Origin: Escherichia coli | GTDB lineage: Bacteria > Pseudomonadota > Gammaproteobacteria > Enterobacterales > Enterobacteriaceae | NCBI RefSeq assembly: GCF_011045215.1 | Contig: NZ_CP049201.1 | DNA length: 64,000 bases | Strand: one strand, 5' to 3' | Part shown: positions 22,094 through 27,054 of the stretch, piece by piece | How the letters are laid out: each line of letters starts with the position of its first letter | Position numbering within the stretch: the stretch's first letter is position 1 | Notes under the pieces: model-generated | The model's input: the letters and a program-made list of their open reading frames with translations, nothing else | The model's database searches: none | Told to the model about the DNA's origin: nothing | Translations under genes and position numbers: made by a program

Positions 22094-23425
22094 TTACTGG
22101 ATGAATGACATTTGATTAATATATTTTATCAATAACTCTCTGGGTGTAGTACTCCAAAAATTTAGGTGTTCATAATCAGTATAAACATTGGTGAATTTTT
22201 TAAGTTCTTCATCACTTTTAGGGGCAAATCGCTCATTAAGAGTAATACTGTCTTTAATTATTCCGAAGAATACAATAGATATTTCAGGAATTTGCGATCT
22301 TCTCTCATAAGAATAAGGTATTTCTTTTATGTTAAGCAGATCTGCTAAATGAGATATAGATTCTGCGGTAATTTCTTGTTTTAGTTTTTCCTTGTCACCA
22401 AAGCAATGTATGAAGACAGCTACGACAAAGATCTTATTTATTAAAGGATCACTGCTTTTGTACTCATCGTCGTTTAATAGTTGAAAAATGTTAAGATTGC
22501 GTGAAAAAGTTTGTGTTTCACGTAAGGATAAGTTGGTTCGTTGAATTAAATCACGGATAAATCTACCAGATAAACTATTAATTTCATTTAATGATTTTGT
22601 CTTGTCTACAAGGTAATTCCAATATATAACAGATGTTTTACATACGACGTGACCATTTATTAAACATGTGTCTGGAAGCGTGATGGTATATTTTATAAAC
22701 TTGTCAAGATACTTTTGTGAGTTAATACTATAACCATAAATATGATTTATCGATGCTTTTAATTGTTCTGTGTTTGTAACTAAAATAAAAAAGACATTAT
22801 TGATGTCAAAAATGTGTTTTATTGTTTCAATGACATTTGTTGAAAAACTCGGCTTACATCGGTCTAATTCATCAATTATAATTACTATCTTTTGACTTTC
22901 TGAAATGCTTTCGATGCAAGATTTAAGTGAATTTATGTTTTTCTCTGATTCCATATGGTCTTCAAGCAAATTTTCAATAGTCCCATCTATTGCTGCATTG
23001 CTTGCTTTCTTCATCGCATCTTGGAATTCTTCGGAAACTTCACTAGCCTCCTGTCGTAAAAACCAACCTGCACCAGCTTTTAGTACCGTTTTTAAACCAA
23101 AGCGAATTGCAGGAAGAGATCTCTTAATGAAGTGTTGTTTTTCTTCCTCAGGTAAAATGCTGGCAATTGCAGAGGTTATGAGAAGTAATGGAGATTCTGC
23201 ATGATCCCCTTTAAAGGCATCAATATAAACAACTTTAGATTCAGTTTCTTGCTCAATAATGAGATTTTTCAGTTTGATACTAAATTCTGTTTTCCCTGTT
23301 CCCCATGCGCCGTCTATTACCAGTGGTGAAATGTCTGCCTCTGGTTTTAGCAACTTGATGATATTTTCAGCGATGTTTCTGCGTTGGAACTCGTCACGTT
23401 CAGTGAAAGATAGTGTATCTAACAT
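22094..23425 (-). CDS. KAP-family P-loop NTPase (candidate phage-exclusion/abortive-infection protein)
   Basis: Walker A GAWGTGKT, Walker B IIIDELDRC; AT-rich; opposite strand in Q-to-lysis moron slot. Confidence 0.75.
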   Translation of the reverse strand: MLDTLSFTERDEFQRRNIAENIIKLLKPEADISPLVIDGAWGTGKTEFSIKLKNLIIEQETESKVVYIDAFKGDHAESPLLLITSAIASILPEEEKQHFIKRSLPAIRFGLKTVLKAGAGWFLRQEASEVSEEFQDAMKKASNAAIDGTIENLLEDHMESEKNINSLKSCIESISESQKIVIIIDELDRCKPSFSTNVIETIKHIFDINNVFFILVTNTEQLKASINHIYGYSINSQKYLDKFIKYTITLPDTCLINGHVVCKTSVIYWNYLVDKTKSLNEINSLSGRFIRDLIQRTNLSLRETQTFSRNLNIFQLLNDDEYKSSDPLINKIFVVAVFIHCFGDKEKLKQEITAESISHLADLLNIKEIPYSYERRSQIPEISIVFFGIIKDSITLNERFAPKSDEELKKFTNVYTDYEHLNFWSTTPRELLIKYINQMSFIQ

Positions 23426-24051: not shown

Positions 24052-24528
24052 ATGCAGGTACTAAATTCCCAGCGTAAAGCTTTCCTCGATATGGTGGCAT
24101 GGTCAGAAGGAACGGATAACGGGCGACAACCGACACGTAACCACGGTTATGATGTTATTGTTGGCGGCGAACTGTTCACTGATTACTCCGATCACCCTCG
24201 CAAACTTGTCACGCTAAACCCCAAACTCAAATCAACAGCCGCCGGGCGTTATCAGCTTCTTTCACGCTGGTGGGATGCTTACCGTAAACAGCTTGGTTTG
24301 AAAGACTTCTCCCCCAAAAGCCAGGACGCAGTGGCATTGCAGCAGATTAAAGAGCGTGGCGCTTTACCGATGATTGATCGCGGTGATATCCGTCAGGCTA
24401 TCGATCGTTGCAGCAATATCTGGGCGTCATTACCCGGCGCTGGTTACGGTCAGTATGAACATAAAATCGGTGACCTGATTGCCCGATTCAAAGAGGCTGG
24501 CGGGGTGGTAAATGAAGTTGAGCTATAA
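24052..24528 (+). CDS. Endolysin, lambda R-like lytic transglycosylase
   Basis: Near-identical to recalled lambda R (NQRKAFLDM.AWSEGTDNGRQ.TRNHGYDVIVGGELFTDYSDHPRKLV). Confidence 0.9.
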   Translation: MQVLNSQRKAFLDMVAWSEGTDNGRQPTRNHGYDVIVGGELFTDYSDHPRKLVTLNPKLKSTAAGRYQLLSRWWDAYRKQLGLKDFSPKSQDAVALQQIKERGALPMIDRGDIRQAIDRCSNIWASLPGAGYGQYEHKIGDLIARFKEAGGVVNEVEL

Positions 24529-24973
24529 GCTGGTTATCGTTGCTTTCTTCGTTACTGTCATTGGTTCTTTCATCTGTTCAGTGAATCGTTACCACAATAA
24601 AGCCATTGAATACAAAATGCAGCGTGATGAGAATGCTATGGCATTAGATTCGGCTATGGCGACCATCTTTGATATGCAGAAGCGTCAACGTGACGTAGCA
24701 GAACTTGACGCCAGATACACAAAGGAGCTTGCTGATGCTAATGCGACTATCGAAAGTCTCCGTGCTGATGTTTCTTCTGGGCGTAAGCGCCTGCAAGTCG
24801 CCGCCACCTGTGCAAAATCAACGACCAGAGCCAGCGGCATGGGCGATGGAGAAAGCCCAGGACTTACAGCAGATGCTGAATTCAATTATTACCGTCTCCG
24901 AAGTGGAATCGACAGGATAACCGCACAGGTTAATTACCTACAGGAATACATCAGAACTCAATGCATGAATTAA
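24512..24973 (+). CDS. Spanin inner-membrane subunit Rz
   Basis: N-terminal TM segment, lambda Rz-like (QRDVAALDAKYTKELADA-type motif). Confidence 0.8.
   Translation: MKLSYKLVIVAFFVTVIGSFICSVNRYHNKAIEYKMQRDENAMALDSAMATIFDMQKRQRDVAELDARYTKELADANATIESLRADVSSGRKRLQVAATCAKSTTRASGMGDGESPGLTADAEFNYYRLRSGIDRITAQVNYLQEYIRTQCMN
24735..24920 (+). CDS. Spanin outer-membrane lipoprotein Rz1 (embedded in Rz, +1 frame)
   Basis: Lipobox-like LLGVSAC followed by proline-rich region. Confidence 0.55.
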   Translation: MLMRLSKVSVLMFLLGVSACKSPPPVQNQRPEPAAWAMEKAQDLQQMLNSIITVSEVESTG

Positions 24974-25582
24974 AAGAGGCAGATTGATCGTGTTTTCGAA
25001 GTGTTATACCACGCCCGTTCTGTTAATTTGGCAAAATCTGTTCTGATGCAATGAGTATCGAAAGATTTATTGGACTGGTTGCTTTGGTTATCACTGTTAT
25101 CGCTGGAGTTGTTGGCCTAGGGCGTATCCGTGGCACTAGTAAAAGAAGAGGTTAAAACTGCTCTGTTATACACTGAAGTTAACGCAGCGGCTAAGCACTC
25201 AGCAGCAGGACACCGTGTAGAGGCAACGGAAGAGGCCAGAAATATACAGCAGACTATTAACCATATTCCTGGTGACTCTGTTGAGCGCGGTATGCATAAG
25301 AAATACAAACGTACAATTTGAAGTGGTATATTTTTCTTGTTAGTAGATGAATATAATATACCACACAGAATACGATATAATTATTGCTCATGCTTACCTA
25401 AATATGAAAAACAATAAAGTTATAAGTAGACAAGTGTTTTGTTACTTTTAATAATTGATGTGATGTATATATTAAGATTGAAAAATTTAATCATTCTTTC
25501 CACATATAAATTAAGTGGTTCCCTTAGCTTGTCATTTTTGATGATAAGTGAGAGAATATGAACATTATATGATGGAGATAAT

Positions 25583-25894
25583 ATGTCAAACATAAAAATC
25601 AAACAAGCTATTGAAAAGATTGCGGAGTTCAGAGCAGCATCTGCTGCGATGGCTGATGCTCACATGGTTCTTATTACAGAGCTATTGAACTCAATTGAGG
25701 ATATCCGCAAAAACTCTGGTGATAATCTCTCTGAGTTTGAAAAAGGACAGGTTGCTCTCTACATAAAAATTAGCCCAGTTGTGAAAAATGGAATTTCGAG
25801 TATTGAAAAATATAATGAGTCTTTAAGTTCAGACTATGTTGAGGCTATGAACTCCTTATCTAAAATTGCGGGAGGGAATTCAAATGTCGATTGA
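25583..25894 (+). CDS. Hypothetical protein A of AT-rich cassette
   Basis: 103 aa ORF with GGAG RBS. Confidence 0.45.
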   Translation: MSNIKIKQAIEKIAEFRAASAAMADAHMVLITELLNSIEDIRKNSGDNLSEFEKGQVALYIKISPVVKNGISSIEKYNESLSSDYVEAMNSLSKIAGGNSNVD

Positions 25895-26270
25895 AGATGT
25901 TGGAAGCATCCTTGATAGATTAAAAGTAGCCAGGATCGAAAATAAAAAAATTGAAGAGTCAGCTGGAAAAGCAGAGGAAAATGCTGTTAACTCTAAGCAT
26001 ACTGATGGTAAAACACGAAGCGCCTTAACTATTACGTTTCTCTGGTTCTTTTTTTGCCTTCTTATTTTTAGCTGTCTTTTTGTTCTTTGGTATAATAATT
26101 CTGTTGTGAATTGGGCTTTAGAGTTAAAGAGCAAAGGTGTTGATGATTACGTTCAATATTTAAAGCCACTCGAGCTGGAAAAGGTATTGTCAATAATGAT
26201 TACTGCCCTTGGTACTTCATTAGGATTTATAATTGGGTATTATTTTAAGGATAAAGAAAATCATTCTTAA
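25884..26270 (+). CDS. Hypothetical membrane protein B of AT-rich cassette
   Basis: Hydrophobic segment ITFLWFFFCLLIFSCLFVLWY; start overlaps stop of A. Confidence 0.45.
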   Translation: MSIEDVGSILDRLKVARIENKKIEESAGKAEENAVNSKHTDGKTRSALTITFLWFFFCLLIFSCLFVLWYNNSVVNWALELKSKGVDDYVQYLKPLELEKVLSIMITALGTSLGFIIGYYFKDKENHS

Positions 26271-26315
26271 TATAGAGTTATCTCTAAAGATAACGAATTT
26301 TAATAGGAGGGTAGA

Positions 26316-26618
26316 ATGTCTGAACTGAATTATGAAGCAATAGGTCGCTGCAAAATCCTTAATGAAAAGATCAAAGATCTTCATGCTGAACGAATGAAAG
26401 CTATTGGTGATTTACGTACTGCTGTCTATGCCCTTCATCAGAAAGGGAATGTAAACCTCATCCCACCAGAAATTGTTGAATTCAACCCCCAATCGCTTAC
26501 ATCCCTTGTAGAGAAGGTTGGTCACTATGATGGTGAGCTGATGCGAGCTGTACATGAGTACAACAACTGGTGTGTAGAAGCAGGCGAGAAACCCGTAAAA
26601 CTTATAAAGCTAGACTGA
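26316..26618 (+). CDS. Hypothetical protein C of AT-rich cassette
   Basis: 100 aa ORF with AGGAGG RBS. Confidence 0.45.
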   Translation: MSELNYEAIGRCKILNEKIKDLHAERMKAIGDLRTAVYALHQKGNVNLIPPEIVEFNPQSLTSLVEKVGHYDGELMRAVHEYNNWCVEAGEKPVKLIKLD

Positions 26619-26643
26619 AACAACAAATTTATGCAAATCATTA

Positions 26644-26667
26644 GCCTCGCACATGCGGGGCTTTTTT
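26644..26667 (+). terminator. Rho-independent terminator after AT-rich cassette
   Basis: GCCTCGCA-ca-TGCGGGGC stem followed by TTTTTTAT. Confidence 0.5.
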
Positions 26668-26703
26668 ATGCGCACCACACATGCACATCAAAGAGAGTCT
26701 TCA

Positions 26704-27054
26704 ATGCCGCCACGAATCCCAAAAGCCTGCCGTGTTCGCGGTTGCCGCCATACCACGACTGACCCGTCAGGCTACTGCGAAAGCCACAAAAGCGAAGGCT
26801 GGAAGCAATACAAACCTAGACAATCCCGTCATCAGCGCGGCTACGGTTCGAAGTGGGACAGTATCCGCGCGCGTGTCCTGAAGCGTGACAAAGGCCTGTG
26901 TCAGTTATGTCTGCGTGCCGGTGTGGTGCGTGAGGCGAAAGCCGTTGACCACATCATCCCTAAAGCGCATGGCGGCACTGATGCCGACTGTAATCTGCAG
27001 AGTCTGTGCTGGCCGTGTCATAAGGCGAAGACGGCCCGTGAACGGCTGAAGTGA
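26704..27054 (+). CDS. HNH endonuclease (packaging-associated)
   Basis: HNH motif HIIPKAHGG...CNLQSLCWPCHKAK; start placed after terminator. Confidence 0.75.
   Translation: MPPRIPKACRVRGCRHTTTDPSGYCESHKSEGWKQYKPRQSRHQRGYGSKWDSIRARVLKRDKGLCQLCLRAGVVREAKAVDHIIPKAHGGTDADCNLQSLCWPCHKAKTARERLK

Follow-up and report, generated by a model that had tools for sequence, protein, structure and literature searches.

Gene pairs of the RexAB type appear to be the closest functional analogues of a two-gene unit carried by a prophage in a 64,000-nucleotide stretch of Escherichia coli DNA (hereafter the window; NCBI RefSeq assembly GCF_011045215.1, contig NZ_CP049201.1). The unit consists of two small genes, A and B, located between the spanin genes Rz/Rz1 and the genes for an HNH endonuclease and the terminase, and it is followed there by a third small gene, C. 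The pair gp30/gp31 of mycobacteriophage Sbash reportedly offers one comparison of the RexAB type. Another example is PP_5643/5644 of Pseudomonas putida (PMC12894663). In architecture alone, A+B resembles these pairs as a prophage two-gene operon with a soluble cytoplasmic protein first and a small membrane effector second; the proposed logic, a sensor or regulator coupled to a membrane-damaging effector, is also alike. In contrast, lambda RexA is a DNA-binding protein of 279 amino acids (aa) whereas A is a hairpin of 103 aa; RexB has four transmembrane (TM) helices and B two; and RexAB lies in the immunity region whereas A+B lies in the late region. Homology was considered and rejected (hhalign gives a probability of 0.3% for the B alignment against RexB and of 0.2% for the A alignment against RexA), and A and B are not members of the RexAB family.

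GhoST and PanAT, the latter with the membrane-acting PanT, are toxin-antitoxin (TA) modules with membrane toxins. Like these, A+B has two short overlapping genes, a putative neutraliser upstream and a small membrane protein downstream. The upstream partner differs between lineages and the B-type protein is conserved, the genes reside on mobile elements, and the putative toxin gene B has been inactivated in one lineage. In contrast, no homology of A+B to catalogued TA families was found, and A has no recognisable DNA-binding domain. Partner promiscuity of TA modules has been discussed (PMC10440598).

A+B also resembles phage morons in the sense of Juhala and Hendrix. It is absent from collinear relatives, it is AT-rich, it occupies a slot with differing cargo in sister phages, and at most loci it is preceded by a promoter-like element and followed by a terminator. 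It differs in that the terminator in the window comes after a second, unrelated cargo gene, C.

Two cargo units that were acquired separately very probably lie between the spanin and HNH-terminase genes: a mobile A+B pair, and gene C, which belongs to the Sb55 family. A+B itself is a conserved and translationally coupled unit. Forty B-encoding viral contigs were fetched, and the pair is known from about 30 non-redundant loci (composition and terminators were scored on 30 and the -10 scan was run on 31). An ORF (open reading frame) of about 100 aa adjoins or overlaps B in every locus with upstream sequence, the overlap usually being 8-14 nucleotides (nt). The two frames overlap or are at most 10 nt apart everywhere except possibly in locus L017, where one choice of B start gives a gap of 1 nt and another a gap of 28 nt. 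These upstream ORFs align as one family though they are only 16-31% identical to the A of the window; the family shares the invariant residues R17 and Y85 and a conserved YN.S...DY motif. A alone, used as the query of a word-based search, retrieves only itself, which indicates that A evolves fast while the B core is conserved. The mean pairwise distances are 0.74 for A, 0.41 for the B core and 0.79 for the N-terminal 40 residues of B. In a mirror-tree analysis, the A and B distances co-vary across loci, suggesting that the pair is inherited as a unit.

In the window, A and B overlap by 11 nt (the ATG of B is at 25884 and the TGA of A at 25892-25894), in agreement with the original prediction, which had reported an overlapping junction and three small co-directional ORFs with ribosome-binding sites. 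All three are present on the plus strand, and each has a Shine-Dalgarno sequence: GGAG 5 nt 5' of the A start, GGGAGGG before B and AGGAGGG before C. The 128 aa of B are counted from the ATG; its maximal ORF begins at a TTG at 25866. A, B and C are real genes rather than chance ORFs. Each matches a PHROG family over its full length (E 5e-44 to 3e-70; the function of these families is unknown), and the homologues hold their length across genera. A random frame at about 35% GC would contain about 7% stop codons, and the probability of an open frame of 103-128 codons may be put at about 1e-3 to 1e-4. The ratio of nonsynonymous to synonymous substitution rates is 0.19 for A and 0.07 for B, both values coming from a single unsaturated pair only.

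B is the proposed effector of the module. It had been predicted to have one strongly hydrophobic segment; the protein is hydrophobic, but it has two such segments (residues ~48-70 and ~101-120). The N-terminal ~45 residues are charged and variable and close with a conserved DGKTRS. An invariant YN ends TM1, which is followed by a 31-aa loop, and TM2, GALGTSLGFIIGYYFK, is followed by YYFK(D/E)K; the C-terminus is KDKENHS. The TM helices are flanked by positive-inside charges, and the predicted layout fits an inner-membrane protein of N-in/C-in topology with the 31-aa loop in the periplasm. TM2 contains a GxxxGxxxG motif (G110/G114/G118) that is nearly invariant in the family alignment, and in the hydropathy and charge analysis pairwise identity is 0.88 in TM2 vs 0.25 in the N-terminus. 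Glycine zippers of the GxxxGxxxG type are typical of helices in homo-oligomeric channels or pores, the TM2 of pinholins among them. By analogy, the zipper may link the TM2 of B to oligomeric pore helices.

The 2TM effector of CBASS (cyclic-oligonucleotide-based antiphage signalling systems; PADLOC 2TM_IV) was considered as a relative of B and rejected. The weak match (E 0.0028) spans both TM helices of B, involves positions 10-82 of the 235 in the profile and recurs in one of 10 other family members (E 0.018), and the locus has no cyclase or other CBASS gene. It is treated as a compositional similarity.

A is proposed to be the partner or regulator of B. AlphaFold2 predicts a two-helix hairpin (helices 2-45 and 51-98; predicted local distance difference test score, pLDDT, 86), and the protein is predicted to be soluble. 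Foldseek comparison of A with viral structures gave nothing at E<0.7. Profile searches of the PDB gave only designed or coiled-coil proteins and noise from G-protein-coupled receptors and transporters. With A, B and C, nothing significant was found in Pfam (for B, nothing below E 0.02), and the NCBIfam matches were all sub-threshold. In PADLOC, Pfam and NCBIfam, no defence, toxin or antitoxin family was matched significantly by A+B. Literature searches with the accessions, the PHROG ids, prophage two-gene membrane systems and glycine-zipper toxins found no description of A, B or C. The paper on the Tai tail-assembly-inhibition system was also checked and is unrelated.

The original prediction regarded A, B and C as a single cassette with an architecture of the kind seen in superinfection-exclusion or abortive-infection modules. 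The three genes are indeed adjacent and co-oriented, only 45 nt separate B from C, the sole terminator of the window follows C, and four near-identical E. coli viral contigs share this arrangement. Those four contigs, however, are the only loci where C accompanies A+B. A and B are co-inherited at every locus examined, C is absent from every diverged A+B locus, and in Klebsiella phage P7641 the A-B pair is directly followed by HNH with no C between. Conversely, about 34 of 38 loci have C but no A/B, and C is then usually found 30-480 nt upstream of HNH-TerS-TerL (most of loci L044-L080). The GC content of C is 0.42 vs 0.35 for A+B. A and C, both hairpins of about 100 aa, were also compared as possible paralogues and are not homologous (hhalign probability 0.5%). 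The single-cassette reading is therefore extremely improbable, and the three-gene cassette as a conserved unit is refuted. The predicted combination of soluble and membrane proteins is real for A+B, but it does not extend to all three genes as one set. The features of the region are as follows.

24512-24973, plus strand: Rz (i-spanin) with embedded Rz1, from the ORF list, 'lysis protein' in RefSeq; left border of the slot.
25018-25321, plus strand: spanin remnant or recombination scar, containing a 63-aa ORF (25130-25321, 192 nt) with a phrog_1026 match.
25529-25557, plus strand: promoter-like site for A+B, from a consensus scan.
25583-25894, plus strand: gene A, 103 aa, phrog_21707 (PHROG E 4.3e-48).
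25884-26270, plus strand: gene B, 128 aa, phrog_20796 (PHROG E 3e-70).
26316-26618, plus strand: gene C, 100 aa, phrog_4827 (PHROG E 4.9e-44).
26643-26670, plus strand: intrinsic terminator between C and HNH, from a scan; stem at 26643-26662.
26704-27054, plus strand: HNH endonuclease, from RefSeq, phrog_144 (E 1.9e-44); right border of the slot.

The boundary between the two units can be read from sister prophages. In the sister phage L045, the endolysin is 99% the same and C is 100% identical, the C-terminus of Rz is different, and there is neither a 63-aa ORF nor A+B. Exactly at the place of A+B (L045 3317-3850), it has a protein of 160-177 aa with one TM segment (phrog_6169, function unknown). 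Homology to the window resumes at 26302, just 5' of C, so that L045 has C and its terminator behind a different gene. In other sister prophages, homology stops at 24948-24973, at the end of Rz, the last conserved lysis gene, and resumes at 26643 or 26704, where HNH opens the packaging module. Their cargo consists of two tiny ORFs, a 229-aa protein, or KilA-N and Gp49. Overall, four sister prophages (L045, L095, L096 and L097) have other genes between Rz and HNH. The original prediction of a moron position between Rz/Rz1 and HNH-terminase holds: holin, endolysin and Rz lie upstream, HNH, TerS and TerL lie downstream, and unrelated genes are found there in sister E. coli prophages whose lysis and HNH flanks are about 92-94% identical. 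Neither A+B nor C is universal in related phages, and neither has a known lysis or morphogenetic role.

The 63-aa ORF upstream of A matches positions 46-84 of the 85 in phrog_1026, 'Rz-like spanin' (E 4.6e-10), and the segment 25018-25289 shares 72% identity with the spanin region upstream of A+B in locus L009. Full-length spanin homologues are present upstream of A+B in L008-L011, L016 and L021. The foreign spanin 3' remnant beside an intact Rz/Rz1, together with the full-length versions in these donor-like loci, indicates that A+B came by recombination with a scrap of the donor's lysis region. Unit 1 (~25018-26270) is thus a horizontally mobile two-gene moron, and unit 2 (26302-26670) is gene C with the terminator.

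C is an independent accessory gene linked to HNH-terminase modules and lies outside the A+B unit. It belongs to the ST64B Sb55 family (phrog_4827, residues 1-100) and is 86% identical at the amino acid level to Sb55 of Salmonella phage ST64B, where sb55 is followed by sb56 at the same position between lysis genes and HNH. C is thus an ordinary member of this uncharacterised family. The mean column identity of the C family is 77%. AlphaFold2 predicts a helical hairpin for C (pLDDT 89), for which no informative match was found. Two cysteines stand out in the family alignment: C12 (in GRCK) is invariant and C86 (in NNWC) is conserved in at least 90% of the members, with each of the two close to one end of the predicted hairpin. 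In the model, a disulfide or an inter-subunit metal site is conceivable.

Composition and transcription signals also set A+B apart. GC content is 0.28-0.36 across 25250-26300, compared with 0.44-0.60 in the flanks; the block is thus AT-rich as predicted, with the exception of C, which is intermediate. In 30 of 30 loci, the GC content of A+B is 0.32-0.39 vs 0.41-0.59 in the flanks (in the window, 0.35 vs 0.48 and 0.55). The window has a candidate promoter 26 nt before the A start: TTGTCA, a 17-nt spacer and TGnGAGAAT, an extended -10. A -10-like hexamer (at least 5/6 matches) is present between -75 and -11 of the A start in 22 of 31 loci, compared with a fraction of 0.35 in same-sized AT-rich coding control windows. 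The matches peak at -45 to -36 from the A start, and many have an upstream TG.

In 21 of 30 loci, B is followed at a distance of no more than about 200 nt by a strong terminator (hairpin and T-run). The terminator of the window has an 8-bp stem, AGCCTCGC-ACAT-GCGGGGCT, followed by T6. It had been taken as the end of the block, and it is present as predicted; however, it follows C rather than B and, like C, is shared with the sister phage L045, which has no A/B, so it is not the end of an A-B-C unit. L008/L010 and the sister prophage L095 also have this terminator, and in L095 homology resumes at 26643. An Rfam scan of 24900-26800 gave only a sub-threshold match to the small RNA STnc100 at 26580-26673 (23.8 bits vs a gathering threshold of 47, E 0.014), which is probably just the terminator hairpin.

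A+B behaves as a mobile moron and not as a core phage function. It was found in only one of 5426 complete E. coli genomes, even by distant blastn, compared with 3542 matched by the flanking lysis/HNH DNA, and B was found in one of 50,697 isolated phage genomes. The pair accompanies at least three types of lysis cassette (lambda-type, holin_8/M15-peptidase/LysC-type and P7641-type) and precedes either HNH/P27-type or lambda GpA-type terminases. It is also present away from lysis genes. In a Providencia stuartii prophage (L091/L092 5595-11170), A+B is part of a moron cluster between the tail assembly chaperone gene and the tape-measure gene; the cluster also encodes a toxin of the YafO family and a protein of 396 aa that has a weak HEPN-type match in PADLOC. 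In Serratia marcescens CP090244 (L090 3086-7472), an intact A+B is located in a 4.3-kb remnant flanked by icd on one side and on the other by a second copy of the icd 3' end, the e14-type attachment site. This remnant has no lysis or packaging genes and otherwise contains a Mom-like fragment and a 350-aa phrog_30351 membrane protein. In Vibrio vulnificus, A+B lies beside Zot-type inovirus genes.

A frequently sampled E. coli lineage of the same prophage (L119/L120 4001-4734) has lost B. A T7 run in the TM1 codons is shortened to T6 (corresponding to ~26049-26055 of the window), and the frameshift leaves a 74-aa product. C carries a CGA-to-TGA nonsense change at codon 26 in this lineage, A is undamaged, and over the aligned stretch the DNA around these genes is almost identical. 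The loss of both genes shows that B and C are dispensable for the element.

B relatives form 103 clusters at 90% identity across Enterobacterales, a few of them bearing Vibrio or Pseudomonas labels. When 1.8 billion representatives were searched with a profile, 234 relatives were found (counted as representatives at 50% identity), nearly all of them stand-alone proteins of 100-150 aa. In all three distant relatives that were looked up, an 87-92-aa helical ORF lies 3-10 nt upstream; homology of these partners to A was considered, and no relation is detectable. A scan for the DNA pattern of GFIIGYYFK, with one genome per species, gave 19 loci, 10 of which are in Patescibacteria (L099-L103, L107, L110, L111, L113 and L114). 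These encode small proteins with two TM helices that end in LGFIIGYYFK, each with a 68-86-aa protein directly upstream. The gaps are mostly -4 to +4 nt, with 18 and 41 nt in two Dojkabacteria, and for the distant and Patescibacteria pairs together they range from -4 to +41 nt. The upstream partners in Patescibacteria show a weak CopG match (E 0.009) and matches to helix-turn-helix (HTH) families (E 2.5e-4 to 0.08), each in single members. Among the neighbours of B-like pairs are a Sau3AI-like nuclease (in L103) and an IS1595 transposase (in L110 and also in L088). Extension of the B family to Patescibacteria is tentative, as the similarity to B is weak outside TM2. It is possible, though rather doubtful, that A+B is the Enterobacterales-phage branch of an ancient, unrecognised two-gene TA or abortive-infection family that spans distant phyla on phages and on islands flanked by insertion sequences (IS). 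Such a family may be marked by the TM2 signature ...G(T/S)xLGF(I/V)IGYYFK, with the B-type protein kept and the upstream partner swapped between lineages. In proteobacterial phages this partner may be a helical hairpin, and in Patescibacteria a CopG/HTH-like protein.

We give somewhat less than an even chance to the possibility that A+B is a prophage-borne TA-like or abortive-infection module, with B as the membrane effector and A as its regulator. In such a module, A would be made first, stoichiometrically coupled to B, and would bind B, probably at the variable cytoplasmic N-terminus, keeping it inactive. An infection or stress signal would remove or alter A, and the freed B would oligomerise through TM2 and permeabilise or depolarise the inner membrane. 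The infected lysogen would undergo growth arrest or premature death, to the benefit of the prophage-carrying population. We infer the oligomerisation of B, the membrane damage, the A-B interaction, the trigger and the defence phenotype; the reasons for reading the pair as a conflict module are the following. First, A and B are strictly paired and translationally coupled. Second, a conserved effector B is combined with a diverging or swapped partner. Third, A+B is mobile, being found in cargo slots, prophage remnants and IS-adjacent sites, and it is rare. Fourth, B was inactivated in one lineage while A stayed intact. Finally, the neighbourhood is rich in defence candidates (a PDC-S20 KAP NTPase in the window, and a PDC-M68A-like nuclease in a sister prophage).

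There are also observations that weigh against a conflict module. The promoter evidence is at consensus level, and the -10 of the window is weak (4/6 plus TG). In many loci A+B directly follows the spanin genes in late-operon orientation, and the lysis gene before A overlaps its start in L083 and L039, which makes co-transcription with late genes certain and a role in the lytic cycle conceivable. In the mirror-tree analysis, A correlates significantly with the B N-terminus, but the correlation does not exceed that with the B core and thus shows only co-inheritance. The fold of A is a generic hairpin, uninformative on function. The loss of B in one lineage could be neutral decay, as C was knocked out there too. 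As for the wider family, the Patescibacteria proteins resemble B only weakly outside the TM2 motif, and the DNA-binding assignment of their partners is marginal (E ~0.01).

The position and orientation of A+B, including the overlap of A with a lysis gene in L083 and L039, favour the main rival explanation, that the pair is the phage's own lysis-timing accessory. In that case, B would be holin/pinholin-like or an antiholin and A its regulator, with late Q-dependent expression only. Class II holins and pinholins (such as S21 68/71), with their antiholins, are small proteins with two TM helices in N-in/C-in topology and a glycine-rich TM2, and they oligomerise into lesions. T4 RIII is a small cytoplasmic helical regulator that acts on the T holin. 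B likewise is a small protein with two TM helices, the same predicted topology and a glycine-zipper TM2, A is a small cytoplasmic helical protein, and both genes are mostly found straight after the spanins. B also shares with holins the combination of TM helices and a charged C-terminus (KDKENHS), a feature that is not holin-specific. A role in lysis timing is nevertheless unlikely. B matches no holin family in Pfam or PHROGs. The pair is tied to no endolysin or holin type, occurring with at least three unrelated ones, and is absent from nearly all related phages that share the lysis cassette. It is essentially absent from isolated phages, virulent ones included. Furthermore, it is found apart from lysis genes in the Providencia tail region, at Serratia icd, beside the Vibrio inovirus genes and near IS elements, and, judged by its deviant composition and its terminators, it is an independent unit.

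The predicted topology of B bears on a second alternative. An inner-membrane protein with a 31-aa periplasmic loop, carried as prophage cargo in a moron position and kept in a degraded prophage remnant, could be a non-lethal superinfection-exclusion protein that blocks DNA entry, like T4 Imm, P22 SieA and HK97 gp15, with A as a chaperone or stabiliser. However, known exclusion proteins act alone, whereas A is strictly conserved and translationally coupled to B. The most conserved part of B is a TM helix and not the periplasmic loop, and a recogniser of diverse incoming phage components should vary there. B-like pairs lie beside IS elements in Patescibacteria, and in PHROGs and PADLOC B has no similarity to families of the Imm, SieA or gp15 type. 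We therefore consider an exclusion function improbable.

Moron architecture is silent on the trait conferred, no defence family matches A+B, and the pair in the Serratia remnant lies near a universal stress protein gene. These observations would suit lysogenic-conversion cargo without a role in phage conflict (for example in membrane stress, ion homeostasis or host interaction), or a selfish addiction module. Against this stand the distribution of the pair, which is typical of conflict systems (cargo slots with defence candidates, and sites adjacent to IS elements and restriction enzymes), and the very fast divergence of the partner A reflected in its mean pairwise distance. No secretion signal or virulence-family match was found for A+B either. 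Such a role thus has a low probability.

If A+B is indeed a conflict module, a pair of about 700 bp, made of a hairpin regulator and a glycine-zipper membrane effector, would be added to the prophage conflict systems, with neither protein in current catalogues. A+B is in any case an uncharacterised module of a familiar general kind, made of new protein families with a striking TM signature. The near-invariant TM2 provides a sharp signature for finding relatives, with candidates even in Patescibacteria, where few defence or TA systems have been characterised. If the conflict reading is wrong, the annotation is still cleaner, with two units instead of one and C assigned to the Sb55 family.

The host element is an HK97/e14-like lambdoid E. 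coli prophage, and the queried stretches are 99.9-100% identical to a prophage of strain VTB97420v. Its gene order is Q antiterminator, KAP NTPase (minus strand), lambda-family holin, GH24 endolysin, Rz/Rz1, the 63-aa ORF, A, B, C, terminator, HNH, P27-family TerS and TerL. The Rz-HNH slot, like the slot between Q and the holin gene, is a point of cargo exchange in HK97/e14-like prophages and is useful for guilt-by-association mining. In the window, this second slot holds an AT-rich gene (GC 0.26-0.31; 22094-23425, minus strand) for a 443-aa KAP-family P-loop NTPase. The protein gives a full-length PADLOC PDC-S20 match (E 9.4e-177) and has weaker similarity to PifA and QatA. In sister prophages, the Q-holin slot is occupied by a DNA methyltransferase or the PDC-M68A-like nuclease.

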